Source: Candidatus Rariloculaceae bacterium (GTDB lineage: Bacteria; Pseudomonadota; Gammaproteobacteria; Steroidobacterales; Rariloculaceae). From it: DNA of 64,000 nt. The position numbers and the translations under genes are program-made. Below are positions 15,030-34,944 of the stretch, in pieces (position 1 is the first letter of the stretch; each line of letters starts with the position of its first letter). A model generated the notes under the pieces. That model worked only from the letters and a program-made list of their open reading frames with translations. It searched no databases and was not told the origin of the DNA. Location of the stretch: assembly GCA_965221035.1 (NCBI GenBank), contig OZ244860.1:3733414-3797413 (forward strand), read 5' to 3'.

Positions 15030-15247
15030 GCTAGCACGGCACCCGGGGGAACTGTGCGGGTGTGACCCGGGCGGCCCCTGCGGCTCATCGCCACTAATGC
15101 AAATTTTTGTATAAACGGCGGAATGTCGGGGTCCCCAAACGCCAAGTTATAGACTCGAATTCGTCTGGTCGGCAGTCGGGCCAGTTCCTAACCCTGTTCG
15201 CCACCTTGTCAGGTGCTGATGACACGACCCTGCGGGAGCAAGACGAA

Positions 15248-18895: not shown

Positions 18896-20200
18896 ATGGC
18901 GCATAACACTCCGACCGCGATGATGGCGCACCGGCCCATGGGGCTGGCACAGTGGGTCGCCGTGGTGATCACCTTCGGGCTGAACGCCCTTGACGGGTTC
19001 GATGTACTGGCCATCAGCTTCGCCGGTCCCGGCATCGCTGCCGACTGGGGCGTGAACCAGGCGACGCTCGGCTGGGTGCTGTCGATGGAACTGATCGGTA
19101 TGGCGGTGGGTTCCCTGGTCCTCGGCATGGTCGGCGACAAGGCGGGTCGGCGAACGACGATCCTGTTCTGCCTGGTCCTGATGGCGGCGGGCATGTTCGG
19201 AGCCGGACAGTCGGGTGGGGTTTCGGAACTGCTTGCCTGGCGGTTGCTGACCGGCCTGGGCATCGGCGGCATGCTGGCTGTCACCGCGGCCGCCGTGGCG
19301 GAGTTTTCCAACCTGCGCTGGCGCGGGCTCGCCGTGGCCCTGATGGTCATCGGATACCCGATCGGCGGAATCCTCGGCGGGATCGGCGCACGTTACATCC
19401 TGACCCACAGCACGTGGCACGACATCTTCACGTACGGAGGCTGGGTGACGGCGGCGTTCATTCCCATCGTGTTCCTGCTGATGCCGGAATCGCCCGTGTT
19501 TCTGGACCGCATGCGCCGGCCCGAAGCGCTGGAGAAGATCAACCGTGCGTTTGCGCGGTTCGGCCACCCGCCGGCTTCCGAGTTGACACCTCTCGCCCCG
19601 GCGGCGCCGAAAGCGTCGCTGGCGGACATCTTCAAGCCGGGACTGGTGATGACGACCGCGTTGGTGACCGGCGCCTATTTTTCGCTGATCACCACGTTCT
19701 ACTTCCTCGTGAAATGGGTGCCCAACATCATCGTCGACATGGGGTATGAACCGGCCGCCGCGGCCGGTGTCCTGGCCTGGCTCAATGTCGGCGGCGCGAC
19801 CGGCGGAGCGATCTTCGGTTTACTGGCCACGCGGATTCAATTGCGGCCCCTGACCATCGGCGTCATGATCGGCGCGACCGCGATGATCATCTGGTTCGGC
19901 AGCGGTGCCGATGACCTGACAGGGTTGACGGTCATCGTCGCCTGCGCCGGATTCTTCACCAACTCGGCGATCTGCGGCATGTATGCGCTGTTTGCGAAGG
20001 TGTTCCCCACCCATGTGCGATCAACGGGAACCGGCTTCGCGATCGGGGTCGGTCGCGGCGGATCGGTGCTGGCGCCGGTGGTGGCGGGCTACCTGTTCCA
20101 GGCGGGGTTCGGGTTGCAGTTTGTCGCGGTGGTGATGGGTTGCGGGGGGTTGCTCGCGGCGAGCTTGCTGTTTTTCCTCAAGGAACGCGCGGCGGATTAG
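18896..20200 (+). CDS. MFS aromatic acid:H+ symporter (AAHS-like)
   Basis: LDGFD, DKAGRR, GLGIGG, PESP, RSTGTGFAIGVGRGG. Confidence 0.9.
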   Translation: MAHNTPTAMMAHRPMGLAQWVAVVITFGLNALDGFDVLAISFAGPGIAADWGVNQATLGWVLSMELIGMAVGSLVLGMVGDKAGRRTTILFCLVLMAAGMFGAGQSGGVSELLAWRLLTGLGIGGMLAVTAAAVAEFSNLRWRGLAVALMVIGYPIGGILGGIGARYILTHSTWHDIFTYGGWVTAAFIPIVFLLMPESPVFLDRMRRPEALEKINRAFARFGHPPASELTPLAPAAPKASLADIFKPGLVMTTALVTGAYFSLITTFYFLVKWVPNIIVDMGYEPAAAAGVLAWLNVGGATGGAIFGLLATRIQLRPLTIGVMIGATAMIIWFGSGADDLTGLTVIVACAGFFTNSAICGMYALFAKVFPTHVRSTGTGFAIGVGRGGSVLAPVVAGYLFQAGFGLQFVAVVMGCGGLLAASLLFFLKERAAD

Positions 20201-20242: not shown

Positions 20243-20369
20243 TGGCCGCCGATTTCTGGTCGCCTTAATCTTGATCGGATTCGCTGGAGCACGCGAATCG
20301 GAACCGAGTTTGCGGACCAGTCGATTCAGGACAAAGCGATCAAAATGAAGCGAATCCTTGGGGGCCGAC

Positions 20370-21665
20370 ATGTTTAACGACAGGAATTTCACCAGGCAAG
20401 CCATTGTTCTGATGCTCTTGGGGTTCCTGTTGATGTTCTTCTACGTCGGCTTGCAGACTGACCACCTGAACGTGCTCACGCCCTATCTCCAGGCGACATA
20501 TGGGTGGAGCGATCTGGCCATCACCAATCCTGTGACGGCCGCCGCGCAGGTTGGCATCGCGCTGTATCTGGTGGTTGGTGCGGCCTATGTGAAATACGGC
20601 GTAAGGAAAATATTGGTTCCCTCGATACTGGTGTTGGCGCTCGGGTGCGTCGGCATAGCCATAGCCGCGGAGAACTACGCGATTTATGCCGTTAGCGTGT
20701 TTGTGGTCCGCGCCATGGTCATACCGTTGCTGTTGGGCGCCTTCCTGCTCTGCGCCAACTGGTTCATCAAGTACAGGGGGCGCGCGTTGGGGGTGGTCAC
20801 CGCCGGCGCTCCGTTTTTCTCCATCATAGGCATCGCGACCATGACCTGGTTGACCAACGATGTGGGTCTCGGCATGAACGTCTACCTCGTGATTGCCGCC
20901 ATTCTGGTCGGTATGAGCATCGTAACCGCTCGGTTGGTCAGGGACACGCCGGAAGACTGCGGACTCTACCCGGACGGTGCGGATCACCGCCCCGTTTCCG
21001 AACAGGGGGAAACAGGGAAACCGATTCCCGTCATGCAGCTTCTCAGTGAGGTCAGGGCATGGCAATTGATCATCTCCTACGGAATCATGCAATTCGTCAT
21101 TGTCGCGATGATGGCCTATATGGCTGTGCGCTACATCAGCCTCAGCACGCCGGAAGATGTCCCGAACCTGTTCGTGAGCCAGGCGCTGATCTGGTTGTCT
21201 GTGGGAGCCGCTTGCGGGATCCCCATGAGTTACGTGATCGGCTGGATCGACGACAAGCTGGGGTCAATCAAGGCATCGCTCGTGTTGAATGTCTTGTTTT
21301 TCTTCGCGGTGGTGCCGCTTGCGCTCATGCCCGAGGGTGGAAACAGGATGCTGATGGTGATCTGGGCATTTGGAGTCGCCTGCATGACCGGCGGCGTCCC
21401 GACCATGCACCCCTGCATAACCTCCTATGTCTATGGGCGCAAGCACTATATGGAAGCCAACAAGTGGCTCATGACCATCCAGGCGATACCGATGGCATTT
21501 GCGATCGCATTCATGGCGGCCTTCAATGACGCCGGCATACTGACCAACGCCTACTACGTTCTCATGGGACTGCTGGTCGTTTCGTTCGTGACGATACTGA
21601 CAATGCGCAATCTCCCCGACGCGAACGCCGAGGACAGGGACTACGCGCGCGCCGCATCAACCTGA
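20370..21665 (+). CDS. MFS transporter
   Basis: About 12 hydrophobic segments; NWFIKYRGRALG, GWIDDKLG. Confidence 0.85.
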   Translation: MFNDRNFTRQAIVLMLLGFLLMFFYVGLQTDHLNVLTPYLQATYGWSDLAITNPVTAAAQVGIALYLVVGAAYVKYGVRKILVPSILVLALGCVGIAIAAENYAIYAVSVFVVRAMVIPLLLGAFLLCANWFIKYRGRALGVVTAGAPFFSIIGIATMTWLTNDVGLGMNVYLVIAAILVGMSIVTARLVRDTPEDCGLYPDGADHRPVSEQGETGKPIPVMQLLSEVRAWQLIISYGIMQFVIVAMMAYMAVRYISLSTPEDVPNLFVSQALIWLSVGAACGIPMSYVIGWIDDKLGSIKASLVLNVLFFFAVVPLALMPEGGNRMLMVIWAFGVACMTGGVPTMHPCITSYVYGRKHYMEANKWLMTIQAIPMAFAIAFMAAFNDAGILTNAYYVLMGLLVVSFVTILTMRNLPDANAEDRDYARAAST

Positions 21666-21750: not shown

Positions 21751-22374
21751 ATGGAATATTCCGTTACCCAGGACGATATCGGTACACATCTACACTGGAA
21801 GCACGACGGGGTCACCGCCCAGATGATCGACTGGTTCTGGAGCAACATGGAGAAGGGGGTCATTCTCTGGCATCCGGAAGAGCATGAGCCGCTGACCTGG
21901 GAAGTGCCTCCCAAGCACGGCAACCCGATCCATTCGATTCACCTCGCACCGCAAACGTGGTCGGACGGTACACGCAGAAATCTCTACATCCGCTTTGAGG
22001 ATCTCGACGATGTGCCGACAAGATTCAAGGACGTGATCGACCATGAGCACGTGGTTGTCGTGGCCGGCCTCGGATTCGGGCCCGAGAGCATGGAGAATCC
22101 GGACCCCATGGGGTATCGCATTCACCAATGGGAGAAGACCGATTACGGAGTCAGGGGGCGTTCAACCGGCATCGGCACACGTGTGAAGGAAACCCATGAA
22201 GACGGCATGATCTGGGCCAAGCACTGCGCGCAGGAAGTGGGCAACTGGGGAGTGTTCCTGCCCCAGCTGTTTACGCTGTGGAAGGTGGTCAAGAACACGG
22301 ACTACAATCCGTTCACCGACCTGACAGTCGAAGGTAGCGGGGACACGCTGCGGTACAAGTATATTGATCGGTAA
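21751..22374 (+). CDS. PhlG / phloretin-hydrolase-like C-C hydrolase (short form)
   Basis: GVTAQMIDWFW...LWHPEEH, IRFED and C-terminal KHCAQE...FLPQLF match the recalled DAPG-hydrolase family motifs and metal ligands. Confidence 0.75.
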   Translation: MEYSVTQDDIGTHLHWKHDGVTAQMIDWFWSNMEKGVILWHPEEHEPLTWEVPPKHGNPIHSIHLAPQTWSDGTRRNLYIRFEDLDDVPTRFKDVIDHEHVVVVAGLGFGPESMENPDPMGYRIHQWEKTDYGVRGRSTGIGTRVKETHEDGMIWAKHCAQEVGNWGVFLPQLFTLWKVVKNTDYNPFTDLTVEGSGDTLRYKYIDR

Positions 22375-22391: not shown

Positions 22392-24911
22392 TCAGAAATT
22401 GACCGAAACCCCAACGCCATACGTGCGCGGCGGAGCCAGCGTCACGTACTCGGCCCCTCCGCCGAATGACGGACCGTAGTTCGTCTGAACCGCCTCGTTT
22501 CCGATATTCCGCGCATAGCCGTGAACAAACCAGGAGTTATCGGCTGAGGCCCAATTCAGATACAGGTTGTACAGACTGTAATCGTCTTGAACGGACTTGC
22601 CCGGATTGGCGATGTTTGCGCCCGGAGCTCCACCCAGGGACCAATATTCGCCGCGGTGTTCAGCGTTCAGACTTGCTGTCAGATTGCTGCCTCCTGGCAA
22701 CTGGAATATGTGGCTGTAGGTCAGATTGACTGCAGTCTCGGGCGAATTCTGCAAGACCAGGCCATCGTAGGACGCGTTGAGTGTGGAAAGATCGCCGTAC
22801 ATCGACGAGATTGCGTCGGAATCCGTGAAACCGACCTGGTTCATGGTCGCTTCAAAGTCGGCTGCCGAGGGAAGGCCTGTAGGAGCCGTTGTGATCGAAT
22901 CCAGCAATTCCAGCGACAGATCCAACCGGTCGGAGTCCGTAAGCAACCAATTCAGTTCGATGTCGACTCCGGAGCTGATGAGGTCCGGAACCGTCGATGC
23001 CAGTATCTGGTAGCACGCATAACCGGTTAGCGGGTCAAAGAATGCAGGGTTCGGAAACGGGAATGCCGAGCACGCGGGAAACGGTGGTGCGAACTGCGGG
23101 TTGACCTCCACGCCCACACTGCCTTCCAGCATCCGGTCATGGTATTCGGAGTCGAAATATTCGAAATTGAACTGCAAGCGATCTTGAAGCCAGCGGCTCT
23201 TGTAACCGAGAGTTATTTGATCCAGCGTTTCCGCAACGGTGCCTTCAGGAGCAAACGCAAATATGTTGCCTGCCTGATATCCGGTGCTGTAAACGGCGTA
23301 CGCCATCGAATCTCCGCCTGAAAGGTCGTATTCGACGCCAAGACGGTAAGTCACGTCATCCCAGGCTCTCGCGCCGGTGCTCGCAGGCGGATAACCTTGC
23401 GGTCCGGGACCTGTGCTGTCACCGGGTGTATCCGAGAGTCTAAGGTAGGATTTTTCGTCGTCGCTTTGGCGAACACCCGCCACGATGCGCAGCGTATCCG
23501 TTACCGGAAACGCACCGTTCACATAGACCGAGAGCGTTTCGTGCGCGTTGTTGTCGAACGACCAGCAATACGCATTCTCGGTAAGGCTCACCGCCGGACA
23601 GAACGGTCCCGCTCCGAACCCGGGAAAGCCGGCGGAACGAAATGTTCCGTCAAGCTCGGTATCGTAATAATAGAGGCCGGCGAGCCACTCGAACGGCGCG
23701 TCCGGGGAAGAGGTCAACTGCACATCGACCTGGGTGGTCTCCTGCCGTCGGTCCTCGCTTCGCCAGTCGGTGCCGCGCGGGGGTTCTTCGGACAGAAAGT
23801 GCGCTTTCTGGAAGGAAGGCGCCACGGTCAGGGTTCCGATACCCGTGATCCAGTCAACGTCTGCGCTGAACTGGTCGATCGTCGTATTGCGGAAAGGGCT
23901 GTTCGGCCAGGAGTCAAACGGATAACCATCGTCCCAGGGATCGGACCGGTCCCGGTACGATGTGCCATCGTTGATATGGCCGTACAACGTTCCCATGGTC
24001 ACGTCGTAACAGGGTGACGTCGCGCACACGCCACCGGGCGGCCCAGGCGGCCCACCCGGTGGTGCGGGAGGGCGGATGGGATCCTGATCCGGATTGTACG
24101 CTTCCCAGTAGCCGCCATATGTGAGGACGCTCGTGTCGACACCATTACCGCCGATCGTGTTTTGGGACGCCGTCAGGACAATGTTCAAAGCGTCATCGGG
24201 CTGAATGCGATACTTGATACGGTAGTTCGTCAAATCCGAGTCGCCCGCCCCGGAAGAAATGTAACCGTTCCTCTGGACGTCCGAATAGGCGATACGGATT
24301 GCCTGATTGTCGGCCAGCGGGATATTGACCACGCCTTCGAAACTGGCCAGGTCAAAACTTCCAACCTCCAGCGAACCGTTTCCTTCAAATTCGAAAACCG
24401 GATCATTGGATACCAGGCTCACCGCGCCCGCCAGCGAGGCGGCCCCAAGCGTTGTGCTCTGCGTACCGCGCATCACCTCGACCTGCTGCAGGTCCAGTGA
24501 ACCCCCGCGTACCGTTTCGCCCCTATTCTGGTACACCCCATCGATGAGCACCGCCACGACGGGTGTTCCCGTGCCTGGGGGCTGCGGTCCGGAACCAACG
24601 CCGATTCCCCTCAAGAAAAAGGAGTCGCCGACCTGGCTTCCCTGCGAGGCCACCCCAACGACCCCACGCATGATCTCGTCGATGCGTTTCTTGCCTTGGG
24701 CCCGCAATTGTTCGCCGGTGAACACTTGAATGGACATGGACGTTTTCTGCAGATCGGCTTCACGTCTTTCTGCGGTGACGACTATCTCCTCAAGCATCGA
24801 GCCGGCTTCATCCTGGGCTGGCGAATTTGTCGTGTGCAGCAAGCCAACCGCTGCCGCGAGGGTGCCGACAATGTTAAGAATCCGCCTTGGCTGAATTGGT
24901 CGATTCATCAT
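22392..24911 (-). CDS. TonB-dependent receptor
   Basis: LEEIVVTAERRE, VEVMRGTQST, PRTYGVGVSVNF. Confidence 0.95.
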   Translation of the reverse strand: MMNRPIQPRRILNIVGTLAAAVGLLHTTNSPAQDEAGSMLEEIVVTAERREADLQKTSMSIQVFTGEQLRAQGKKRIDEIMRGVVGVASQGSQVGDSFFLRGIGVGSGPQPPGTGTPVVAVLIDGVYQNRGETVRGGSLDLQQVEVMRGTQSTTLGAASLAGAVSLVSNDPVFEFEGNGSLEVGSFDLASFEGVVNIPLADNQAIRIAYSDVQRNGYISSGAGDSDLTNYRIKYRIQPDDALNIVLTASQNTIGGNGVDTSVLTYGGYWEAYNPDQDPIRPPAPPGGPPGPPGGVCATSPCYDVTMGTLYGHINDGTSYRDRSDPWDDGYPFDSWPNSPFRNTTIDQFSADVDWITGIGTLTVAPSFQKAHFLSEEPPRGTDWRSEDRRQETTQVDVQLTSSPDAPFEWLAGLYYYDTELDGTFRSAGFPGFGAGPFCPAVSLTENAYCWSFDNNAHETLSVYVNGAFPVTDTLRIVAGVRQSDDEKSYLRLSDTPGDSTGPGPQGYPPASTGARAWDDVTYRLGVEYDLSGGDSMAYAVYSTGYQAGNIFAFAPEGTVAETLDQITLGYKSRWLQDRLQFNFEYFDSEYHDRMLEGSVGVEVNPQFAPPFPACSAFPFPNPAFFDPLTGYACYQILASTVPDLISSGVDIELNWLLTDSDRLDLSLELLDSITTAPTGLPSAADFEATMNQVGFTDSDAISSMYGDLSTLNASYDGLVLQNSPETAVNLTYSHIFQLPGGSNLTASLNAEHRGEYWSLGGAPGANIANPGKSVQDDYSLYNLYLNWASADNSWFVHGYARNIGNEAVQTNYGPSFGGGAEYVTLAPPRTYGVGVSVNF

Positions 24912-24978: not shown

Positions 24979-25015
24979 ATCGTGGATTTCGATAGCAGCT
25001 ATCGCATTCACCTAT
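24979..25015 (-). promoter_or_regulatory. nod-box-like LysR site (class I) upstream of TBDR
   Basis: Minus strand ATA-GGTGAATGC-GAT-AGCTGCT-ATC-GAAATCCAC-GAT. Confidence 0.65.
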
Positions 25016-25028
25016 TCTGGGCGCCTGT

Positions 25029-25829
25029 TCACGCAGTGGTGATATACGGCCTCAGATGCCGTTTGAAGTCGTCCGTTGGCGCTTCGAGCAGGAATTGGCA
25101 CACAAAGTCCACCGCCGGCTGCAGAAAGGGGTAGCGGTCGTAAGTGGCCCAGGGTGGCTTCGAATAATGGACCTTGGACTCGATGACCGCATCGCGCCAG
25201 GCGTTGGCGTTCTCGTACCAGAGCTCAGTGACCCTTGCAAACGGGCCCAACCGTGGTTCCCGTACTTGCCTGTAGCTAAAGAAACGCTTGAGTCCCGGTT
25301 GCGAGGCGACTTCCGGCGCGTGAACCTTCAGGAACCATTCTTCACCCTCTTCGACAGACACGCCGTCAGGGTACTTGTGCGCTGTGATCCAGCGTATGAT
25401 GGTTCCGTCGTCCAGAGTCAGTCCCTTGCCCAGGAAATCGTCCGCACGACGGCTCTGGACGAATATCATGACCGGCGGATGGGGTCCGCCTGGGCTCCCA
25501 GCCCAACCGGCGGTACGCGCTTCGCCTTCAGGAAGGCCCACCGCCGCTGCATAGTTCGAGGGCCAGACTTCGCTCAACGCGGTGCCGTGGTCCATTACGC
25601 CACCTATCCAGGGCGGTTCGCGCCACCAGTGTTCCGTCATGCGCCAGTTGTAAGGAAAAAAGCGTTCCGAGCCCTCCGGCGCTGGCACGGCGCGATAGCT
25701 CGTGTAGCGCTCCAGGATGGGATCAAGCTGGCCAACCGTCTCGCGGGCATGATCCTTGAGCAGCCATCGCTCCATCAGGGGCAACTCGTTCATGTCGGCG
25801 AGATTCAATATCAGGTAGCTGCGCAGCAT
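25029..25829 (-). CDS. Bacterial-type chalcone isomerase homolog (EthD-like two-domain fold)
   Basis: Colinear motifs with Eubacterium ramulus CHI as recalled: RWLLKDH, MTEHWW, DFLGKGLTLDDG, YPDGVSVEEGEEW, ELWYEN, KPPWA...PFLQP, terminal YIT; GGAGG RBS. Confidence 0.8.
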   Translation of the reverse strand: MLRSYLILNLADMNELPLMERWLLKDHARETVGQLDPILERYTSYRAVPAPEGSERFFPYNWRMTEHWWREPPWIGGVMDHGTALSEVWPSNYAAAVGLPEGEARTAGWAGSPGGPHPPVMIFVQSRRADDFLGKGLTLDDGTIIRWITAHKYPDGVSVEEGEEWFLKVHAPEVASQPGLKRFFSYRQVREPRLGPFARVTELWYENANAWRDAVIESKVHYSKPPWATYDRYPFLQPAVDFVCQFLLEAPTDDFKRHLRPYITTA

Positions 25830-25886
25830 GCTGTACCTCCGGCGTGATGATGAAATAAGGTAATTCATGGAGTCACCATGTCCAAA

Positions 25887-25923
25887 ATCGCTATTATCGA
25901 TTGCACACATAGATGGGTCGGAT
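25887..25923 (-). promoter_or_regulatory. nod-box-like LysR site (class I) in the CHI/LysR divergent region
   Basis: Minus strand ATC-CGACCCATC-TAT-GTGTGCA-ATC-GATAATAGC-GAT. Confidence 0.65.
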
Positions 25924-25969
25924 GCGACAGCACAGGATGGACTCGACGCAGCACCCCGGGAGCTTCTAA

Positions 25970-26896
25970 ATGCATTTCAATCGCTTTGACCTGAATTTGC
26001 TTGTCGCGCTGGACGCGCTTCTCGAAGAAAAAAACGTGACACGCGCGTCGGAAAGACTGTTCATGTCCCAACCCGCGATGAGCGGGGCCCTCCAGAGGCT
26101 TCGGGAACGATTCAATGATCCGTTGTTGATCCGGGTAGGCAGAACGATGGAGTTGACGCCGCGCGCCAGGACCCTGATCGAACCCGTAAGGGAAATACTG
26201 CTCCAGATTCAGAATACCATCGACGTCGAGCCGGAATTCGACCCGGCGACCGCGAGAAGGTCGTTTACGGTGCTCATGAGCGACTACGTGTCAACGGTAC
26301 TGGTGCCCGAGGTGCTGCGCCGAATCTCGACCAGGGCGCCCGGTGTGAAGATACAGGTCGCCATGCTGGGCGGGCGGGATCACGAGCGGTTGGAAGCCGG
26401 TCGGGCGGACTTGATGATTCGGGCCCGCGTCGACCCAAGGAGCGAATCCGCGCTGATTTCGGAGAACCTCAATGTCGATGAACTGTTCGACGACGACTGG
26501 GTTTGCGTGGCGGACGCCAATCATCCGGCTATCGCTGACGAACTGACGCTGGAGGAATACGTCAGTCTTCCCCACGTTTCACACGATTTTGGCGGGCGGA
26601 CTCCCATGCTTGAAGAAATTTCGCACGCACAGATTTCACTGGACCTCGACGTTCGCGCGGCGGCGCCGAATTTCTCGACTCTGGTGTTCATGTTGCCTGG
26701 CACCCGGTTGATCGCCGTGATACCGCGGCGTCTGGCGCGGACGCTGTCCAGGAATGTGGATATGAAAATCATGAAGCCACCCGTTGAGCTTCCGCCGCTG
26801 AATGAAGTGTTGATCTGGCACAATCGCCACGAGTTGGATGCGGCGCATTCCTGGTTGCGGGGCGTGTTCAGGGAAACCGCGCGAGAGCTGGATTGA
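25970..26896 (+). CDS. LysR regulator, NodD-like
   Basis: FDLNLLVALDALL, SQPAMSGAL.RLR..FNDPL, FDPAT..R.F...SDY. Confidence 0.92.
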   Translation: MHFNRFDLNLLVALDALLEEKNVTRASERLFMSQPAMSGALQRLRERFNDPLLIRVGRTMELTPRARTLIEPVREILLQIQNTIDVEPEFDPATARRSFTVLMSDYVSTVLVPEVLRRISTRAPGVKIQVAMLGGRDHERLEAGRADLMIRARVDPRSESALISENLNVDELFDDDWVCVADANHPAIADELTLEEYVSLPHVSHDFGGRTPMLEEISHAQISLDLDVRAAAPNFSTLVFMLPGTRLIAVIPRRLARTLSRNVDMKIMKPPVELPPLNEVLIWHNRHELDAAHSWLRGVFRETARELD

Positions 26897-27007
26897 AGGC
26901 TCAAATCGAGAGCAAATACCTCGTATCGATATAATCGATTCATTCATCAATAGGCACTGCTGTACGATGCGAAATTCGGGATGCAGGTGCTGGCAACAAG
27001 GGTCGAA

Positions 27008-27412
27008 ATGGCGTCGGAGCAGGCTTTCGAATTTCATCACGGCGGCGTAAGCGTTCCAGACCTCGATGCGGCAATCGGCTGGTATCGGGAGATGCTCGGA
27101 TTTGAGGTCGAGAAGCGGTTTTCGATTCCGGGTGCAAATGCCGACGTTGCGATGGTCCGCAGAGGCGACCTGCGATTCGAGTTATTCGAGGTGATGGATG
27201 CCGATCCGCTGCCCGAAGATCGTCGCCACCCTGATCGCGACTTGCGTACTCACGGTAACAAACACATTGCCTTCCGGGTCGAAGATGCCGAAGCATTCCT
27301 TGAGCTGATGACCAGGAAGAACGCCGATGTGGCAATGGTTGTTAGGGAAGATTTCGGAACGGGCTTCTTCATCCGCGACTGCGCCGGCAATCTCATCGAG
27401 TTTGTTGAATGA
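27008..27412 (+). CDS. VOC/glyoxalase family protein
   Basis: FHHGGVSVPDLD, HIAFRV, RDCAGNLIEFVE. Confidence 0.88.
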   Translation: MASEQAFEFHHGGVSVPDLDAAIGWYREMLGFEVEKRFSIPGANADVAMVRRGDLRFELFEVMDADPLPEDRRHPDRDLRTHGNKHIAFRVEDAEAFLELMTRKNADVAMVVREDFGTGFFIRDCAGNLIEFVE

Positions 27413-27462: not shown

Positions 27463-28401
27463 TCAGAAATTCACCTTGTCTGCGCCCTTGAGATCCAGCA
27501 TCTCGCGAACGTCGTCGGGAGACGCGATCTCGTAGCCGAGTTCCTCGATGATGCGTCGCACCTTGGCGACCTGTTCCGCATTCGACTCCGCCAGCTTGCC
27601 GCGCTCGATGAAGAGGGAGTCCTCTAGCCCAACCCTCACGTTGCCCCCCAGCATGACGGCCAGTGTGGCCATCGGTATCTGCGCGGCACCCGCACCGAGC
27701 ACCGACCACTGGTACTGGTCGCCGAACAGGCGGTCCGCGGTGCGCTTCATGAATACCAGGTTGTCCGGTTCGGCGCCGATCCCGCCGAGTATGCCCATGA
27801 CGAACTGCAGGAATATCGGCGGTCTGAAAAGACCCGTGTCCATGCAGAACTTGAGATTGTACAAGTGGCCGACGTCGTAGCATTCATGCTCGAACTTGAC
27901 GTTGTGCCCGCGTCCCAGCGCCTTTTCGACCTGGGCGATGTCGCGGAAGGTGTTGCGGAAGATGTAGCTGTCCGAATTTTCTACGTAGTCTCGCTCCCAG
28001 TCGAACTTCCATGATTCGAACCGCTGTGCCAGCGGATGGAAGGAGAAGTTCATGCTGCCCATGTTCAGGGAGCTCATTTCCGGTGAGGCCACCTCGGAGG
28101 GTCTGATGCGGTCGTCGATGGACGTCTTGAGACTGCCGCCGGTGGAGAGATTGACGACCGAGTCGGTGTGTTTCTTGATGGTCGGAAGAAAGCGCATGAA
28201 GTGGTCAGGGTCGAGCGACACGGAACCGTCCGAGGGATCGCGCGCGTGCAGATGCAGTACGGCGGCGCCGGCTTCAGCCGCATCGATGGCCTGCCGGGCG
28301 ATGTCCTCGGAGCGGTAGGGCAGGGCGTCGGACATGGTCGGCGTGTGGATCGCCCCTGTAATCGCACAGGTTATTGCTACCTTTCTCGGTTTCCTTGCCA
28401 T
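27463..28401 (-). CDS. BKACE/DUF849 beta-keto acid cleavage enzyme (triacetate acetoacetate-lyase candidate)
   Basis: ITCAITGAIHTP, HLHARD, LNMGSMNF, RVGLED. Confidence 0.92.
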   Translation of the reverse strand: MARKPRKVAITCAITGAIHTPTMSDALPYRSEDIARQAIDAAEAGAAVLHLHARDPSDGSVSLDPDHFMRFLPTIKKHTDSVVNLSTGGSLKTSIDDRIRPSEVASPEMSSLNMGSMNFSFHPLAQRFESWKFDWERDYVENSDSYIFRNTFRDIAQVEKALGRGHNVKFEHECYDVGHLYNLKFCMDTGLFRPPIFLQFVMGILGGIGAEPDNLVFMKRTADRLFGDQYQWSVLGAGAAQIPMATLAVMLGGNVRVGLEDSLFIERGKLAESNAEQVAKVRRIIEELGYEIASPDDVREMLDLKGADKVNF

Positions 28402-28704: not shown

Positions 28705-30150
28705 TCAGCCTGCGGTGCTCCGATTCAGGTAGCCGGGTTGGCCGGGCCGCACCAGGTTGCCGACGACCAGGCACCCGATGGCGACGACGACGGTGACCAG
28801 GGCGTTCGGCATCCCCGCCATACCGAGCCAGTCGGGCAGGTCGCTGAACGACCATAACGAATTGGCGATCCAGCTTGCCAGCAGCGTCGTGATGGCCACA
28901 CCCTGGTTGCAGCGCCAGAACAAGCCGAAAACCAGCACCCAGAATACCGGCACGAGCCAGGCGAACAGCCAGTTCATCGCCGCGAGAATCGGCGGCAGGA
29001 AGGATGCCACGCCGATTGCGGTGCCTGCCACGATCACGATGACGACGCGCATCACCAGCGTCATACGCCCTTCGTCTGCGTTCGGGTTATACAGGTTTCG
29101 ATAAATGTCATGGCTGAAGATCGTCGCGATCGCCAGGGAGATCATCGCGAAGGTGGAAAGTATCGCCGCGAGGAACGCGGCCAGCAGCATCGCCGCGAGC
29201 CAGTTGGGAAGGTAGGCCACGAGCATGGAGGTGGCGGCCACCTTCTGACCGAGCACCTGAAATTCGGGAATCGACTTCGCCGCGAGGCCGAGCACCACGG
29301 CGAACACGCCGAACAACCCGTTGACCGGGGCGGCGATCCACAGGGCGCGCATGATGGTCCTTTCGCTTTTCGCCGCCATGGCAGGCTGCAGCAGCATCTG
29401 GTTGATGCCCTGGCTGAAGATCACCGCAACCAGCGTACCGAGCACGAATGTCAGCATAATCTCCGCGTTGCCGAAGATCGAGAGCATGTGCGCCTGGTCG
29501 GCACCCAGGTAGAACTGCTCGACCGAATCGAAATTCCGGCCGGGCAGGTTCAGGGCCACGACGATGACGGCGAGGATCAACCCAACGTACATGACCACCG
29601 CGTTGACCAGGTTGACGATACCGATTTCGTTGATGCCGGCAAGGATGACATAGAGGATGCCGAGAACGCCGCCGACGACGGCGCCGGTGGGTATGCTCCA
29701 GTCGGTGAGCGAGGCGAAGATGATGCCGATACCCTGCGCCTCGACGGTCAATATCCCGAACAGCACCCCGGCCATGACGCAGGATACGAGCAGACGCGTC
29801 TCCACGCCGTAGCTCATCTGGAGCAGCTGCGGCACGGTCGCCACGCCGACTCTCCTCAGCCAGACGCCCGTGCCGAGACATACGACCACCAACAGGATCA
29901 CGTGTGCGAGGCTGAACCAGACAGCGGCGGCGCCCAGTATCCAGGCCATCTCGAAGACGCCGAGGATATGCGCGGTACCCAGGACTGTCAGCGCAAGCGT
30001 GACGGCGACCACAGGCATCGGCAGACTGCGATGGGCCAGGGCGAATTCGTCCTTGGCCGTCGCGTCCCTGCGGCGCTGCAGCCAGAGGCCGAGCCCGACG
30101 ATCACGATGACTTCGTACGCCAGGACGGCGCCTAGCAATGTGTAATTCAT
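28705..30150 (-). CDS. Sodium:solute symporter family protein
   Basis: About 13 TM segments; EFALAHRSL, LAAFLAAILST, IYRNLYNPNA. Confidence 0.9.
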   Translation of the reverse strand: MNYTLLGAVLAYEVIVIVGLGLWLQRRRDATAKDEFALAHRSLPMPVVAVTLALTVLGTAHILGVFEMAWILGAAAVWFSLAHVILLVVVCLGTGVWLRRVGVATVPQLLQMSYGVETRLLVSCVMAGVLFGILTVEAQGIGIIFASLTDWSIPTGAVVGGVLGILYVILAGINEIGIVNLVNAVVMYVGLILAVIVVALNLPGRNFDSVEQFYLGADQAHMLSIFGNAEIMLTFVLGTLVAVIFSQGINQMLLQPAMAAKSERTIMRALWIAAPVNGLFGVFAVVLGLAAKSIPEFQVLGQKVAATSMLVAYLPNWLAAMLLAAFLAAILSTFAMISLAIATIFSHDIYRNLYNPNADEGRMTLVMRVVIVIVAGTAIGVASFLPPILAAMNWLFAWLVPVFWVLVFGLFWRCNQGVAITTLLASWIANSLWSFSDLPDWLGMAGMPNALVTVVVAIGCLVVGNLVRPGQPGYLNRSTAG

Positions 30151-30327: not shown

Positions 30328-30594
30328 ATGCGCAGCACCGTACGAATCGACGACGACTTGATGACCACCGTCAAGGCTCGGGCTACGGGCGAGGGCGTAT
30401 CGATGACGAAAATGCTCAATCGGGTGGTGCGGTTGGGCCTTGAAGCGATGAGCCTTAAAGCTGAGAAATCCACTCCATACCGGGAAACGACGTTCCGCAT
30501 GGGGCGCCCCCAAGTCGACCTCGACAAGGCGCTCGCGCTGGCCGCCAGTCTTGAAGACGATGAGACGCTCTGCAAGATCTCATTGCGAAAATGA
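30328..30594 (+). CDS. vapB: VapB-like antitoxin (RHH)
   Basis: MRSTVRIDDDL; ATGA overlap with the PIN gene. Confidence 0.8.
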   Translation: MRSTVRIDDDLMTTVKARATGEGVSMTKMLNRVVRLGLEAMSLKAEKSTPYRETTFRMGRPQVDLDKALALAASLEDDETLCKISLRK

Positions 30595-31049
30595 AGATTG
30601 TGGACGTGAATGTGCTCCTTTATGCGGTCAACGAGGAGGCGCACCAGCACTCGACTGTTCGCTGGTGGTGGGAGCGCGCTTTGAGCGCGGACGAGACCAT
30701 CGGACTGCCCTGGTTGGTGCTTTCCGGGTTCTTGCGCCTGTCGACCCACTCGAAAGTGTTTCCCCAGCCACTTTCCGTGGACACTGCGCTCAAGAAAGTC
30801 GACGCTTGGCTGTCGGCCCGCCCGGTCGCGGCGATATCGGAAAAACCCGGCCATTGGTCCATGCTGCGGCGGCTATTGGCCGACGCCGGCACTGCGGGGA
30901 ACTTGACGACGGACACGCACTTGGCGGCCTTGGCCATCACGCACCATGCGGCTTTGGTCTCGTGCGATGGCGATTTTGCGCGGTTTCAAGGGCTGCGTTG
31001 GGAGAATCCGTTGTCCGGAAAAATCCGTCTGAACCCGGATTTCCGGTAG
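30591..31049 (+). CDS. vapC: VapC PIN-domain toxin
   Basis: IVDVNVLLYA, NLTTDTHLAALA, SCDGDFARF.GLRWENP. Confidence 0.92.
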   Translation: MKIVDVNVLLYAVNEEAHQHSTVRWWWERALSADETIGLPWLVLSGFLRLSTHSKVFPQPLSVDTALKKVDAWLSARPVAAISEKPGHWSMLRRLLADAGTAGNLTTDTHLAALAITHHAALVSCDGDFARFQGLRWENPLSGKIRLNPDFR

Positions 31050-31106: not shown

Positions 31107-31883
31107 TCATTGCGCTTCGCCGGGCACGTTGCCGGCGACTCGCTTGACGATGTCGTCCCGCGTCGCGATCAGCGGTTCCTTGAGCATGAATTCTATCCGG
31201 TCGTAGCGCGTCTTGGGCACGGGAATCGAAAGCGCCAGCGGGCGGTCGAATGCGTCGAGGAGGGCCGTGCCCACCGCGCAGATTCCGTCGGTGTGCTCCT
31301 CAATGTCGTAAGCGATGCCGCTGGCAATCGTCGCCCGCACCTGTTGTTCCAGTAGCTCCGGGTCCGTGATCGTCGCGTCGGTGTCGTTCGCCAGAGGACG
31401 ACGGAGCAACGTTCGTCGCCGCTCTTTGGGGAGGCAGGCAAGCAACGCCTTGCCGTTCGCCGTGCTGTGCAGCGGAAAGGCGGTTCCGACACGCGAGATT
31501 GCCGCGAGACGGTGCGAGCCGGCGACCTGGTCGATGAAGATCGCCTGGTTGTCGCTCAGGATCGACAAGTCCACGGTTTCACCAACCGTCCGTGACAGTT
31601 CGACGAGGTACGGGCGCGCCAGACCGACCATGTCGGTCGTCGCTGAGCGGCCGAGACGGACCAGTGCCGGACCCAGCTTGACCCGGCCATTGGAGGAGGC
31701 CGGCATCAGGAATTTCTCCTCGACCAGCGACGCGACGATGCGCTGAACCGTCGAACGGGCCAGATTCACGCGACCCGCGATCACTCCCAGGCTCAAGCCC
31801 GCGGTTTCATGCTCGAGCGTGCGCAATACCTCGGCCGCCCTGGAAATCACCTGTATGCTGGTGCGTTCTCGCGCCTGGGCCAT
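31107..31883 (-). CDS. IclR family regulator
   Basis: SIQVISRA..VL, LARSTVQRI, PLHSTANGKALL, EEHTDGICAV. Confidence 0.92.
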   Translation of the reverse strand: MAQARERTSIQVISRAAEVLRTLEHETAGLSLGVIAGRVNLARSTVQRIVASLVEEKFLMPASSNGRVKLGPALVRLGRSATTDMVGLARPYLVELSRTVGETVDLSILSDNQAIFIDQVAGSHRLAAISRVGTAFPLHSTANGKALLACLPKERRRTLLRRPLANDTDATITDPELLEQQVRATIASGIAYDIEEHTDGICAVGTALLDAFDRPLALSIPVPKTRYDRIEFMLKEPLIATRDDIVKRVAGNVPGEAQ

Positions 31884-31884
31884 A

Positions 31885-31957
31885 TTGACAATCCAGCTTC
31901 CATTCGTACCGTATGCTTGTATCGTATAGTAGTACACATATATCGCATAGCGGTAAA
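31885..31957 (+). promoter_or_regulatory. Probable promoter and IclR operator region
   Basis: TTGACA-16-TACCGT, then imperfect palindromes TGTATCGTATAGTAGTACA and TATCGCATAGCGGTA in an AT-rich divergent spacer. Confidence 0.5.
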
Positions 31958-31973
31958 TTTCAGGAGAAAGCAA

Positions 31974-32843
31974 ATGCCCGGATGGAAAGAAGGTGATTGG
32001 CGAGACGAAGATCTCTGCCGATTCGAGGAGTCCAACCTCGACAACCGCATGGGGATCGAGTTCTATGATCTGACCCACCCTTGGGGCGTGGGGCAGCCGT
32101 GCTGGCCGTACTTCGAGGACGTGAAGATCGAGCGCCTTCACAACATGTCAAAGTCCGGCGTCCTCACGCAGAAGATCACGACCGTCATGCACTCGGGCAC
32201 GCACATTGACGCGCCGGGTCATGTCGTGCCGGGAACGCCCTTCATGGACGAGGTTCCGCTGCCGAATTTCTTCGGCACCGGTGTGGTTGTTTCGATTCCA
32301 AAGAAGAAATGGGAGGTCATCACCCCGGAAGACCTCGAAAATGCGCGGCCGAAGATACGCCAGGGCGACATCGTCATCGTCAATACGGGCTGGCACAAGT
32401 ACTACGGCGACAACCAGCACTACTACGGCTACTCGCCGGGCTTCTACAAGGAAGCGGGGGAGTGGTTCGTCGAAAGGAAAGTCAAGATGGTCGGTTCCGA
32501 CACGCAAGCGCTCGACCACCCGTTGGGCACCGCCATCGCGCCCCACGGACCCGGCAAGCCGGACGGTCTGTTGCCGCATGTCTGCCAGGAATACCTTGAA
32601 ACCACGGGGCGCACCGTGCTTGAGGATTTCCCCGACTGGGAACCGTGCCACAAGGCCATCCTGTCGAACGGCATCCTGGGATTCGAGAACGTCGGCGGCG
32701 ACATCGACAAGGTGACCGGCAAGCGCGTCACGTTTGCCGCGTTCCCATGGCGCTGGAAGAGGGGCGACGGCTGCATCGTTCGCCTGGTCGCCATGCTCGA
32801 TCCCAGCGGCGAGTATCGCATCGAGACCGGCGAGTCCGACTGA
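31974..32843 (+). CDS. Cyclase-family metallohydrolase (dihydrophloroglucinol cyclohydrolase candidate)
   Basis: HSGTHIDAPGH motif; gene context. Confidence 0.88.
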   Translation: MPGWKEGDWRDEDLCRFEESNLDNRMGIEFYDLTHPWGVGQPCWPYFEDVKIERLHNMSKSGVLTQKITTVMHSGTHIDAPGHVVPGTPFMDEVPLPNFFGTGVVVSIPKKKWEVITPEDLENARPKIRQGDIVIVNTGWHKYYGDNQHYYGYSPGFYKEAGEWFVERKVKMVGSDTQALDHPLGTAIAPHGPGKPDGLLPHVCQEYLETTGRTVLEDFPDWEPCHKAILSNGILGFENVGGDIDKVTGKRVTFAAFPWRWKRGDGCIVRLVAMLDPSGEYRIETGESD

Positions 32844-32867: not shown

Positions 32868-33224
32868 ATGACCATGCAAATCACACGCTTCGCCGATGCG
32901 CAACGCTACGATGTCCCCGGCCACTACGACATGCGCGCACTGCGGTTACAGGGGTTCGATGCCAGCGATTCGAAGTTCGCGTGGGCCGGGTTGTCCCAGT
33001 TTCTGCCGGGCGGGGGCGCGGAGATGGACGCAAGTCCGCTGGAGAAGATCTACGTCGTCCTGGACGGCGAGGTGACGGTCGAACTGGGCGACGGCACCAT
33101 CGAGAAGCTCGGCAAGCTCGATAGCTGTTACATAGCCGGCGGCGTGTCCCGCGCGGTGCGCAACGACAGAAATGATGTCGCAACGATGCTCGTGCTGATG
33201 CCCTATCCGGAATCCGCCTCATGA
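32868..33224 (+). CDS. Cupin domain protein
   Basis: EKIYVVLDGEVTV...DSCYI beta-barrel pattern. Confidence 0.8.
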   Translation: MTMQITRFADAQRYDVPGHYDMRALRLQGFDASDSKFAWAGLSQFLPGGGAEMDASPLEKIYVVLDGEVTVELGDGTIEKLGKLDSCYIAGGVSRAVRNDRNDVATMLVLMPYPESAS

Positions 33225-34021
33225 GCCTGCCGAAAATCGACACCTCCAAGCTGTTCGACGTCTCCGGAAAATCGGCGATCATCGTCGGCGCGACGGGTTC
33301 GTTCGGCAAGGTCTGCGCCGCGACGCTGGGCGACGCGGGGGCAAGGCTCGTCATCGCCGCCGGCAACGCGGACAATCTCGCCGAGGTGGGCGGGGAGCTG
33401 CGTGCCGCCGGTGCCGAGGCGGTCGAGGTCGCAAGAAGGCCGAATACGCCCGAAGATTGCGACGCGATCGTTTCCGCCGCGGTCGAGGCCCACGGCGGAG
33501 TCGACATCCTCGTGGTCGCTTCGGGTTTCAATGAAGTCTCGCCCATCGTCGACATGGAGCCGGAGCGTTTCGGGAAGATCATGCTCGCCAACGTCGACGG
33601 GCCGTGGCTGATGGCGAGATCGGCCGGCCGGCGGATGATCGAGCAGGGCAGGGGAGGCAAGGTCGTGTTCACGTCTTCGGCGCGCGGCAAGCTGGGCCAC
33701 CCGGCAGGATATTCGGCCTATTGCACTTCGAAGTCGGCGACCGACGGGCTCACCAAGGCCCTGGGCTGCGAGTGGGGCAAGTACGGCATCACAGTCAATG
33801 CGCTCGGACCGACCGTGTTCCGCTCGCCGGTGACGGAGTGGATGTTCGGGGAAGACGAGCACGCGCGCAGGGTTCGCGAGGGATTTGTGGCCCGGGTGCC
33901 GGTGGGCCGGCTCGGCGAGCCGGAAGATCTGGCGGGGCCGCTCCTGTTCCTGTGTTCGGCGGCGTCCGATTTCCACACCGGCCACATCGTGTACGCCGAC
34001 GGCGGCTACACGGCGGGTTGA
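33221..34021 (+). CDS. SDR oxidoreductase (phloroglucinol reductase candidate)
   Basis: GATGSFG, YCTSK, VNALGP, DGGYTA. Confidence 0.9.
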   Translation: MSLPKIDTSKLFDVSGKSAIIVGATGSFGKVCAATLGDAGARLVIAAGNADNLAEVGGELRAAGAEAVEVARRPNTPEDCDAIVSAAVEAHGGVDILVVASGFNEVSPIVDMEPERFGKIMLANVDGPWLMARSAGRRMIEQGRGGKVVFTSSARGKLGHPAGYSAYCTSKSATDGLTKALGCEWGKYGITVNALGPTVFRSPVTEWMFGEDEHARRVREGFVARVPVGRLGEPEDLAGPLLFLCSAASDFHTGHIVYADGGYTAG

Positions 34022-34026
34022 ATCCC

Positions 34027-34944
34027 GTGACGGGCAAGCGGCCGGTCGCCGTGCTCGGCGGCGGGCTGATGGGTGCGGGGATCGCGCAGGTATTCGCCGC
34101 CGCGGGCTTTGGCGTTCGCGTCTACGAGCCGATCGACGAAGCACGCGAGACCGTGAAGGCGCGCATCGTCGAGAACCTGCGCATGATCGGTGGCGATGTG
34201 ACGGCGGTCGGAGCGGTGACGGTCCACGCCGATTTGGAGCCGGTCGTATCGTCGGCTGGTTTCGTGACCGAGGCCGTACCCGAGAAGCTGGACCTTAAGC
34301 GCTCCTTGTTCGCAGACCTCGAGCGACTCGCTCCGAACGACGCGATACTCGCCAGCAACTCCTCGGTCATACCCATATCGAACATTGCGGACGGCCTGGA
34401 AACGGCGGACCGGATGGTGGGCACGCACTGGTGGAATCCCCCCTACCTCATTCCGCTCGTCGAGGTCATCAAGGGCGCCATGACCAGCGCGGAAACCATG
34501 GATGCGACCATGATGCTCATGCGGGATCTGGGCAAGGAAGCGGCCTACATCCGCAAGGACGTGCCCGGTTTCGTCGCAAATCGCCTTCAGCACGCGCTAT
34601 GGCGCGAGGCGATCGCGATGGTGGCGGAAGGCATCTGCGACGCGCGCACGGTCGATACCTGCATCAAGAACAGCCTGGGCCAGCGGTTGGGTGCGCTCGG
34701 ACCGCTGGAGAACGCCGACATGGTGGGTCTCGACCTGACGCTGGACATCCACCGGACCATCATCCCCGAACTCGATCGCAGCGCCGGTCCGAACCCCTAT
34801 CTGAAGGCGCGAGTCGAAGCCGGCAAACTCGGATTCAAGACCCGCGAGGGCTTCATGAGCTGGACAGACGACGAAATGGCGGCGCTGCGCCGGCGGCTGG
34901 CGGAGCACCTGGTCAAGGCGCAGCGCAAGGGCAGTTCATCGTGA
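34027..34944 (+). CDS. 3-hydroxyacyl-CoA dehydrogenase family protein (3-hydroxy-5-oxohexanoate dehydrogenase candidate)
   Basis: GGGLMGAGIA, EAVPEKLDLK, SNSS, HWWNPP, PGFVANRLQ. Confidence 0.9.
   Translation: MTGKRPVAVLGGGLMGAGIAQVFAAAGFGVRVYEPIDEARETVKARIVENLRMIGGDVTAVGAVTVHADLEPVVSSAGFVTEAVPEKLDLKRSLFADLERLAPNDAILASNSSVIPISNIADGLETADRMVGTHWWNPPYLIPLVEVIKGAMTSAETMDATMMLMRDLGKEAAYIRKDVPGFVANRLQHALWREAIAMVAEGICDARTVDTCIKNSLGQRLGALGPLENADMVGLDLTLDIHRTIIPELDRSAGPNPYLKARVEAGKLGFKTREGFMSWTDDEMAALRRRLAEHLVKAQRKGSSS

Follow-up and report, generated by a model that had tools for sequence, protein, structure and literature searches.

A bacterial chalcone isomerase homolog paired with a short candidate hydrolase in a phloroglucinol gene island of a gammaproteobacterium

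The closest described relative of the gene treated here is the chalcone isomerase (CHI) of Eubacterium ramulus (CHIera; PDB entries 3ZPH, 4C9S, 4D06, 8B7R/U/Z), a protein with a two-domain ferredoxin-like fold, to which a protein of Candidatus Rariloculaceae bacterium (Gammaproteobacteria) is similar in fold and colinear in sequence. The gene for this CHI homolog (P0001 in our alignments) lies at 25029-25829 on the minus strand of a 64,000-nucleotide stretch (GenBank assembly GCA_965221035.1, contig OZ244860.1, positions 3,733,414 to 3,797,413), which is called the window in the following, and encodes 266 residues of the bacterial chalcone isomerase type with H27 as the proposed catalytic base. 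The two systems differ in their surroundings, as the window host has heme-copper oxidases and is not a strict gut anaerobe, and the CHI homolog is accompanied by a TonB receptor, a LysR regulator and a 207-residue protein named mini-PhlG here, and not by an enoate reductase. Plant chalcone isomerase shares the formal reaction, but is unrelated in fold and mechanism (Palm et al. 2022, PMC9694015). The E. ramulus enzyme has a mobile lid (residues 106-130) with a Glu91-Arg125 salt bridge, and a lid-less variant of it retains one fifth of the activity (PMC9694015).

The protein family has been explored before. Meinert et al. (2021, PMC8361940) listed 88 CHI-like proteins, Vibrio and 'Halophaga' members included, and their 66 'novel bacterial CHIs' as well as an inactive branch B belong to this same family, mined from GenBank. 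Their branch A contains 67 proteins, of which 13 novel ones were tested along with CHIera, all being active. Gram-negative and environmental hosts were thus already covered, and the main text holds no gene-context analysis; the novelty of a CHI outside the Firmicutes, which a sequence-only reading of this stretch had implied, is therefore weak. For the degradation of phloroglucinol, the anaerobic cluster of Clostridium scatologenes (PGR, DPGC, HOHDH, TAL; PMC10470551) has been described, and, as far as the consulted part of that article extends, the window matches it with the families of a short-chain dehydrogenase/reductase (SDR), a cyclase, a 3-hydroxyacyl-CoA dehydrogenase (3HCDH) and a BKACE enzyme. 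The same part of Zhou et al. (2023, PMC10470551) reports this cluster from marine members of the alpha- and gammaproteobacteria, sometimes next to DAPG_hydrolase, and holds no description of a link to a CHI homolog in Proteobacteria, of a 207-residue hydrolase form or of a TonB/LysR module. What is known already thus comprises the Pfam model of the family, its non-Firmicute members and the phloroglucinol cluster in marine Gammaproteobacteria, and the added value of the present locus lies in the conserved pair of CHI homolog and mini-PhlG, the cross-phyla link to flavone reductase (FLR) and phloroglucinol genes, a form of the route without a reductase in a respiring host and a candidate auronol-cleaving enzyme. 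By analogy with the E. ramulus enzyme, we consider it probable that the CHI homolog opens the C ring as an isomerase with a His base and thereby supplies phloroglucinol catabolism.

Membership in the bacterial chalcone isomerase family

The minus-strand open reading frame (ORF) ending at 25029 offers ATG candidates at 25910 and 25829, of which the latter is correct, since M[ILKM]RSYL opens the aligned homologs and the products in 26/26 related loci, and GGAGG is found 6 nt 5' of this ATG. The longer start at 25910 has been rejected, as it would add a 27-residue extension that is present in no homolog. In a phmmer search against PDB sequences, residues 3-264 have been aligned with residues 9-280 of the E. 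ramulus CHI (3zph/4d06) at an E-value of 1.3e-25 and 93 bits; only E. ramulus CHI entries match, and the next entry follows at E 0.3. The Pfam family PF18232 (Chalcone_N, 'Chalcone isomerase N-terminal domain') recognizes the protein with 45.4 bits against a cut-off of 25 (E 1.1e-11). The sequence-only reading had claimed, from a set of motifs, that the translation is colinear with the E. ramulus enzyme from start to end, and this has been borne out: the alignment spans both ends and contains every one of these motifs, with RWLLKDH for RWIYKVH, GKGLTLDDG for GKGRTIEDG, PDGVSVEEGEEW for PEGVDKAEGEKW, ELWYEN for EIWFEN and KPPWA..YPFLQP for KPSWA..FPFLKP, in addition to TEH and a YIT close to the C terminus. 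Its expectation that such proteins would be annotated as hypothetical or EthD was equally accurate. Nearly all homologs named by their source are a 'hypothetical protein', one being called 'Chalcone isomerase N-terminal domain', and the sole NCBIfam match of the CHI homolog is a sub-threshold one to TIGR02118 (EthD; E 0.051), which covers residues 153-215 in the C-terminal domain.

An AlphaFold2 model of the CHI homolog, built on an alignment of 125 homologs (A1), has reached a mean predicted local distance difference test (pLDDT) value of 94.9. The comparison of such a model with the CHI crystal structures, which had been proposed as a check, turned out positive: Foldseek gives template modelling (TM) scores of 0.85-0.88 and root-mean-square deviations of 2.3-2.9 Å over 265-269 columns, with an identity to the E. 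ramulus CHI of 23-24% in the structural alignment. The nearest other folds, namely monooxygenase-like, EthD and chlorite dismutase, do not exceed TM 0.5, and plant CHI is absent among the Foldseek matches listed for the model. Residue roles have been taken from Meinert et al. (2021, PMC8361940) and Palm et al. (2022, PMC9694015) and mapped through the phmmer alignment and A1, and conservation has been counted over 94 subfamily rows (P0001-P0097 in A1). The catalytic His33, which had been placed correctly in RWLLKDH, corresponds to H27, kept in 94/94 rows and invariant in all 125 rows of A1. The position equivalent to Asp36, residue 30, is acidic throughout (E in 80 and D in 14 of the 94 rows), with Glu in the window protein; the carbonyl-stabilising Tyr48 and Thr71 are found as Y42 and T65 in every row, and His73 and Trp75 as H67 and W69 in 87/94 and 90/94, respectively. 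As a full-length homolog in sequence and in predicted structure, the CHI homolog is well supported as a genuine member of the bacterial chalcone isomerase family.

The family is a small one, with 233 clusters found at E <= 1e-3 among 1.84 billion representatives, and a search of a 90%-identity database with the CHI homolog has returned 139 clusters at the same threshold. A maximum-likelihood tree of 66 rows has been calculated from 18 samples of the 90%-identity search, the full-length representatives of the 1.84-billion search, the window protein and its paralog. It excludes representatives with fewer than 235 or more than 320 residues and 13 fusion- or fragment-like proteins (P0127, P0139, P0164, P0169, P0184, P0193, P0198, P0201, P0213, P0235, P0251, P0257 and P0260). 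An exact E. ramulus motif was sought among the collected proteins and found in none; therefore, the characterised clade has been anchored via the PDB scores of P0155 (270 bits against 4d06) and P0130 (162 bits), and P0142 falls into it by tree position alone. These close relatives of the characterised CHI form a long-stemmed clade with a support of 100/100, the sister of which is an Alkalibaculum-type pair (99/91; WP_152801502.1 of Alkalibaculum shares 52% identity with the window protein). A 17-row group (96/86) contains both, with the window protein in its other half, and a 26-row clade of remoter proteins, often with a signal peptide, is located on the other side of the midpoint root. Because the characterised clade is nested in its group at these supports, the window protein is placed by this sequence tree in the nearest lineage to the characterised CHI clade, and under the midpoint root the gut CHI lineage would be a derived offshoot of the environmental subfamily that contains the window gene.

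Linkage to phloroglucinol genes and to mini-PhlG

The surroundings of the gene have been compared across 26 related loci, whose CHI homologs share 39-84% identity and which stem from at least nine named groups (among them Gammaproteobacteria/Steroidobacteraceae, Acidobacteriota, Ideonella, Hyphomicrobiaceae/Bauldia, Desulfobacterota, Bacteroidales, Dehalococcoidia, Moorellaceae/Clostridium/Alkalibaculum and one Actinomycetota). Counts out of 26 refer to tblastn searches with the window proteins within 10 kb of the CHI homolog. They replace those of an ORF clustering over 27 sources, which undercounts as its greedy choice swapped some true genes for longer antisense frames, its 'family 14' being the antisense of the CHI gene itself. 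Mini-PhlG accompanies the CHI homolog in 16/26 loci and is mostly adjacent, at least one phloroglucinol gene (cyclase, 3HCDH or BKACE) is present in 10/26, and 19/26 hold mini-PhlG or a phloroglucinol gene. In three of these loci (L007, L020, L026), the CHI homolog is situated immediately 5' of the cyclohydrolase-cupin-SDR genes; their cyclase-family copies are 77-81% identical to the window copy, and the SDR copies of the same three and of L009 are 62-67% identical.

In the window itself, cyclase-family, SDR and 3HCDH-type genes are encoded on one strand, all within 31.8-34.9 kb and with family-level Pfam matches. The cyclase-family protein (31809-32843, plus strand; PF04199), whose gene probably starts at an internal Met at 32049, is a candidate dihydrophloroglucinol cyclohydrolase, its role as DPGC following the consulted part of Zhou et al. 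(2023, PMC10470551). It is followed by a small cupin of 118 residues (32868-33224, plus strand), a type that occurs in phloroglucinol clusters and is kept in 9/26 loci; its counterpart in the Bacteroidales locus L015 matches Cupin_2, and the sole NCBIfam match of the window copy is a sub-threshold one to a model named 'beta-D-galactosidase'. The SDR (33221-34021, plus strand; PF13561 and PF00106) is a candidate phloroglucinol reductase, and the 3HCDH-family protein (34030-34944, plus strand; PF02737 and PF00725), found in 9/26 loci, is a candidate (S)-3-hydroxy-5-oxohexanoate dehydrogenase. The BKACE enzyme (27463-28401, minus strand; PF05853, E 4.5e-101) is predicted to act as a triacetate (3,5-dioxohexanoate) acetoacetate-lyase/transferase and passes the NCBIfam equivalog NF053538 (3,5-dioxohexanoate:acetyl-CoA transferase) with 515.4 bits against a cut-off of 430.

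The anaerobe loci add a further enzyme, a flavoprotein of 304-334 residues assigned as FLR that stands beside the pair of CHI homolog and mini-PhlG (7/26 loci by tblastn, 10/27 sources by ORF clustering). In L015, it corresponds to the Flavonifractor plautii FLR (PDB 7D38; PDB codes as given in PMC7862272) at E 2.3e-105. Three Bacteroidales loci share one gene string, which begins with a kinase, a phosphotransacylase, an unknown gene and the two subunits of a thiamine-pyrophosphate-dependent 2-oxoacid:ferredoxin oxidoreductase, continues with FLR, the 207-residue mini-PhlG, the CHI homolog and the A and B subunits of a CoA-transferase, and ends with the cupin (absent in one of the three), SDR, 3HCDH, cyclase, thiolase and BKACE. 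A Clostridium locus holds most of these families in a different order. The genes for the 2-oxoacid:ferredoxin oxidoreductase, phosphotransacylase and acetate-kinase family have been located beside CHI, mini-PhlG and FLR at L015:5970-8332 and L015:3194-5281 as well as in L016, L017 and L024, and would fit a conversion of arylpyruvate to arylacetate with a gain of ATP. That the subfamily acts on flavonoids is indicated most strongly by the position of the pair between FLR and the phloroglucinol pathway.

Mini-PhlG (21751-22374, plus strand) is proposed to be a C-C hydrolase of the Bet v1 fold that would release phloroglucinol. Its homology becomes visible only via near-threshold Pfam matches, fold comparison and hhalign. 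The sole Pfam match, PF18089 (DAPG hydrolase), reaches E 1.3e-4 and 22.0 bits, under the cut-off of 22.7, and the ortholog of L015 scores 21.8; searches of PDB sequences with the single protein and with a profile have yielded chance-level matches only (E 0.18-1.8). The family counts at least 650 clusters, in which every source-named copy is 'hypothetical', and it retains 62-90% identity across phyla with numerous invariant His and Glu residues. A model with a pLDDT of 80.5 displays the Bet v1 fold, and its comparison with PhlG (3HWP) gives a Z-score of 12.0 over 169 aligned residues at 16% identity, and with the phloretin hydrolase Phy (5XEY and 5XE5) Z-scores of 11.0-11.4 at 18% identity. The PhlG and Phy alignments are the longest and most identical ones, with Z-scores tied with those of generic Bet v1 proteins. 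With hhalign, the mini-PhlG profile has been aligned with that of five genuine PF18089 proteins, which were taken from genomes of Pseudomonadota (probability 96.6, E 5.6e-10, 157 columns). The motifs WHPxxH (H41, H45) and HCxxE (H158, E162) align with invariant PF18089 residues, and an invariant Q68 occupies the position at which the compared PF18089 proteins carry an invariant E98, a residue that we take to be a zinc ligand. Because of the hhalign probability and the alignment of both motifs, mini-PhlG is placed, on sequence grounds, in the acylphloroglucinol C-C hydrolase superfamily as a remote and short representative. It resembles PhlG and Phy in the Bet v1-like catalytic domain (155-169 residues aligned) and in the two motifs, but differs in its length of 207 residues versus about 280-290 in the solved enzymes, in its score below the Pfam cut-off and in the Gln that replaces the Glu. 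Mini-PhlG is a fresher lead than the CHI homolog, which alone is an expected family member and no surprise.

Proposed function and its alternatives

From the observed homology, fold, conservation of catalytic residues and cross-phyla linkage, a reaction, its substrates, an order of steps and a mode of regulation may be proposed. In analogy to the E. ramulus CHI, Glu30 would polarise His27, which would take the proton at C3 from a flavanone or flavanonol that is held by Tyr42 and Thr65; the heterocyclic C ring would open to the chalcone, and 3-hydroxylated substrates would re-close to an auronol. Entry of the substrate would be provided by the adjacent TonB-dependent receptor and the transporters of the major facilitator superfamily (MFS), and the LysR regulator would activate the genes via ATC-N9-GAT boxes. 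In the ring-opened product, mini-PhlG would subsequently cleave the acyl-phloroglucinol C-C bond, and the freed phloroglucinol would be degraded by the enzymes encoded 2-9 kb off, a reductase, a cyclohydrolase, a dehydrogenase and the BKACE lyase.

Several observations weigh against this assignment. Of the residues contacting the A ring in the E. ramulus CHI, Gln69 is replaced by Arg63 in 94/94 and Gln101 by Pro90 in 86/94 subfamily rows, and no clear counterparts are seen for Asn122 and Arg125 of the lid. Compared with the E. ramulus CHI, the segment from strand 3 to strand 4 that includes the lid (residues 70-119) is shortened by 10 residues, and it is modelled nearly all as coil (pLDDT 76-91); at the positions of the salt bridge, for which the alignment is uncertain, Arg125 pairs with W109 (93/94) and Glu91 with D80 (40/94). 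For branch B, Meinert et al. (2021, PMC8361940) have reported, with data not shown there, a lack of CHI activity, and in its members loops stand in place of the helices a3-a5. In 7/26 loci, one of which is a 3.3-kb contig, mini-PhlG and phloroglucinol genes are both missing within 10 kb. In the host genome, FLR has given no match with the queries used, the Old Yellow Enzyme (OYE) family of Fcr/ERED-type reductases has given none (its control was found in 13/14 genomes), and a full-length PF18089 hydrolase is missing above threshold, with nothing at E <= 0.1. The E. ramulus reductases ERED and Fcr are both of the OYE type. Since the searches for FLR and the OYE family were empty, the published route from flavanone via chalcone and dihydrochalcone to phloretin hydrolase has no known reductase in the host and could not proceed there in its textbook form.

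The kept catalytic residues, set against the replaced A-ring contacts and the shorter lid segment, let us regard the acid-base machinery of the CHI homolog as intact and its substrate pocket as partly changed. The partial loss of the A-ring contact set Gln69/Thr71/Gln101 argues for another substrate preference and not for non-membership, because the same three residues are variable in the basal branches 1 and 2 of the active branch A (PMC8361940). The tree suggests that the window subfamily belongs to this branch A, and the coil prediction counsels caution.

The other published CHI reaction, the ring contraction of taxifolin to alphitonin, needs no redox step. It is conceivable, although we advance it only tentatively and from gene linkage, that the CHI homolog and mini-PhlG together lead from flavanonols to phloroglucinol by a route of two enzymes that requires neither a reductase nor oxygen, and that the environmental subfamily is ancestral to the gut Firmicute CHI lineage. 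In the first step, the isomerase would contract taxifolin-type substrates to auronols such as alphitonin, and in the second step mini-PhlG would act as the missing alphitonin-cleaving C-C hydrolase, which would yield phloroglucinol and an arylpyruvate. The auronol-cleaving, phloroglucinol-releasing enzyme has been called unknown (ISME J 2025, PMC12203004), and 3,4-dihydroxyphenylpyruvate, an arylpyruvate intermediate, has been hypothesised as the co-product of alphitonin cleavage (Goris and Braune 2024, PMC11170127). If true, such a route would explain why the pair is kept in a host in which FLR and OYE-family matches were not found, why a 2-oxoacid:ferredoxin oxidoreductase, a phosphotransacylase and an acyl kinase adjoin it in the anaerobes (arylpyruvate to arylacetate, CO2 and ATP), and why C6 and C8 products arise from quercetin.

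Rather unlikely, in our estimate, is a function in which the CHI fold and the same His base serve another phloroglucinol-containing substrate, e.g., acylphloroglucinols, auronols or breakdown products of tannins and phlorotannins, with phloroglucinol catabolism still being fed. The CHI-like proteins reported to lack CHI activity (PMC8361940) are in line with it, as are the Arg and Pro fixed in place of Gln69 and Gln101, the shortened, coil-modelled segment 70-119, and the TonB receptors of the host, which are typical of polymer-scavenging bacteria. Mini-PhlG is in addition broader than the CHI homolog (at least 650 versus 139 clusters at E <= 1e-3), and therefore the hydrolase should also work without it. 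Against this stand the adjacency of FLR, an enzyme known only for the reduction of flavones and flavonols, in 7/26 loci, the nesting of the characterised CHI clade in the lineage of the window protein, and the invariance of His33, Tyr48 and Thr71, which contact C3, the carbonyl and the A-ring hydroxyl.

It is very improbable that the protein is a non-catalytic or unrelated EthD/dimeric alpha-beta-barrel protein, for example one with a role in stress or binding, in which the likeness to CHI would concern the fold only. The sub-threshold EthD match on the C-terminal domain and the EthD, monooxygenase and chlorite dismutase folds listed by Foldseek would speak for it, but these folds reach TM scores of 0.25-0.48 versus 0.85-0.88 for CHI, the sequence match to CHI spans both domains, and the catalytic residues invariant in 94 rows are accompanied by a synteny with catabolic enzymes that is kept across phyla. 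The weakest alternative, a biosynthetic isomerase that forms flavanones from the bacterium's own chalcones, can draw on the reversibility of the bacterial CHI reaction and its formation of (S)-flavanones in vitro (PMC8361940), but hardly deserves credit, as no chalcone synthase, type III polyketide synthase or CoA ligase is found among the annotated window neighbours or the recurrent families of the 26 loci and the conserved neighbours are all uptake or catabolic genes.

Regulation, further neighbours and distribution

The proposed ring-opening isomerase is divergent from a regulator gene (25970-26896, plus strand), which the sequence-only reading had called NodD-like and separated from the CHI homolog by a nod-box-like site. 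A divergent LysR-type regulator (PF00126 and PF03466) is indeed present, with a box of the LysR-type transcriptional regulator (LTTR) kind between the two genes; the likeness to NodD is supported at the level of the LysR family only. The best NCBIfam matches of the protein, BsrA, LeuO and LelA, remain far below their cut-offs, none of its NCBIfam matches reaches the cut-off, and no NodD model is among the best 25 of 46 families. The ORF clustering places a LysR gene beside the CHI homolog in 6/27 sources. A real nod box is longer and bipartite, with a repeated ATC-N9-GAT. A single ATC-N9-GAT, ATCGCTATTATCGAT at 25887-25901, is found in the 140 bp that separate the LysR gene from the CHI homolog; a long repeated box is not seen, and in the window the motif occurs at chance frequency (22 found versus 20.2 expected). 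The likeness to the NodD/nod box system consequently consists in a LysR-family regulator that is divergent from a flavonoid-related gene with an ATC-N9-GAT in between, and the difference in one short box in place of the long bipartite one and in the NodD-specific similarity not seen. Two of the four close relatives (L004 and L005) retain ATCAATAATAACGAT at the equivalent site with conserved flanks, and the other two have a similar element with different spacing.

Two further boxes, in the longer form ATCG-N7-CGAT, have been found at 24979-24993, within the 117 bp that separate the CHI homolog from the TonB receptor gene, and at 26925-26939, between the LysR gene and a gene of the VOC superfamily. 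This longer motif occurs 8 times in the window versus 3.07 expected (2/100 shuffles reach 8), and 3/8 sites fall in the three promoter gaps of the region 24979-26939. As the longer motif was picked after the sites had been seen, this excess is no more than suggestive. In the Desulfobacterota and Clostridium loci (L018:8951-11086, L019, L021, L024, L028), a sigma-54 activator with GAF domains replaces LysR beside the pair. The catabolic module is conserved, and the regulator is exchanged among loci.

Co-directional with the CHI homolog and 3' of it, beyond the 117-bp gap, lies the gene of a TonB-dependent outer-membrane receptor (22392-24911, minus strand; Plug domain PF07715), whose family adjoins the CHI homolog also in the close relatives L003-L006. 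An MFS transporter gene (20358-21665, plus strand; PF07690) is located 5' of mini-PhlG, with which it runs convergent to the receptor gene, and a second MFS gene (PF07690) occupies 18896-20200 on the plus strand. On the other side, the LysR gene is followed by a glyoxalase/VOC-superfamily protein of 143 residues (26981-27412, plus strand; PF13669 and PF00903), a family that recurs in four sources of the ORF clustering. A transporter of the sodium:solute symporter family (28705-30150, minus strand; PF00474, TIGR00813) is situated 5' of the BKACE gene, and an IclR-family regulator (31107-32141, minus strand; PF09339 and PF01614 from residue 99), whose start probably lies 3' of the listed GTG, is divergent from the phloroglucinol operon.

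Further observations concern the vicinity of these genes. A zinc-dependent alcohol dehydrogenase/quinone-oxidoreductase gene of the PIG3 type (13914-15029, plus strand) is kept near the CHI locus in L003-L005 and is a possible substitute chalcone reductase, as its enzyme family can reduce enones. In close relatives (L006:13470-16877, also L003-L005), two added genes that the window does not have lie between the TonB receptor and mini-PhlG, and in L003-L006 they encode 577 residues with a weak FAS1-dehydratase-like match and 531 residues with a weak beta-helix match. More TonB-dependent receptors in or near the window (15107-18052, plus strand; L029:760-2889; L029:5476-8013) are consistent with a scavenging lifestyle. 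Between the symporter and IclR genes, an ORF of 152 residues (30591-31049, plus strand), which begins MKIVDVNVLLYAV, has by eye the look of a PIN-domain (VapC-type) toxin.

The host genome has been assembled into one contig of 3.82 Mb with a completeness of 98.7% and contains three genes for heme-copper oxidase subunit I. It also encodes a second, divergent CHI-family paralog of 257 residues (L029:8088-8861, minus strand, corresponding to C1:3814087-3814860), ~17 kb past the window end and ~55 kb from the CHI homolog of the window, which falls in a different clade of the tree and is neighboured by a TonB receptor, an SDR, a 620-residue FAD-dependent amine-oxidase/CrtI-like oxidoreductase and a zinc-dependent alcohol-dehydrogenase-family protein; L006, G012 and G013 likewise hold both copies close together. 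The CHI gene is present in 2/16 other genomes of the same genus, in 0/8 genomes of other genera in the family and in 0/16 genomes of other families in the order. The GC content dips to 57.5-58.4% over 20-28 kb versus 60-66% across most of the first 48 kb of the window, and the window protein is 57-69% identical to proteins of Bacteroidota, Clostridia and Desulfobacterota. The GC dip, the identity to remote phyla and the sparse distribution together indicate a horizontally mobile accessory module.

Flavonoids and tannins are a major plant carbon input to soils and sediments, and ring-opening enzymes for them have been described almost exclusively in a small number of gut anaerobes. The present locus places the CHI family inside a complete uptake-to-phloroglucinol island of a respiring gammaproteobacterium, and the pair of CHI homolog and mini-PhlG travels across many phyla beside phloroglucinol genes and, in anaerobes, beside flavone reductase. 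Annotation pipelines thereby gain a concrete rule for proteins that are at present 'hypothetical', and enzymologists a short list of candidates for two open steps. For the bacterium itself, the likely role of the CHI homolog is to open the rings of plant flavonoids as food.

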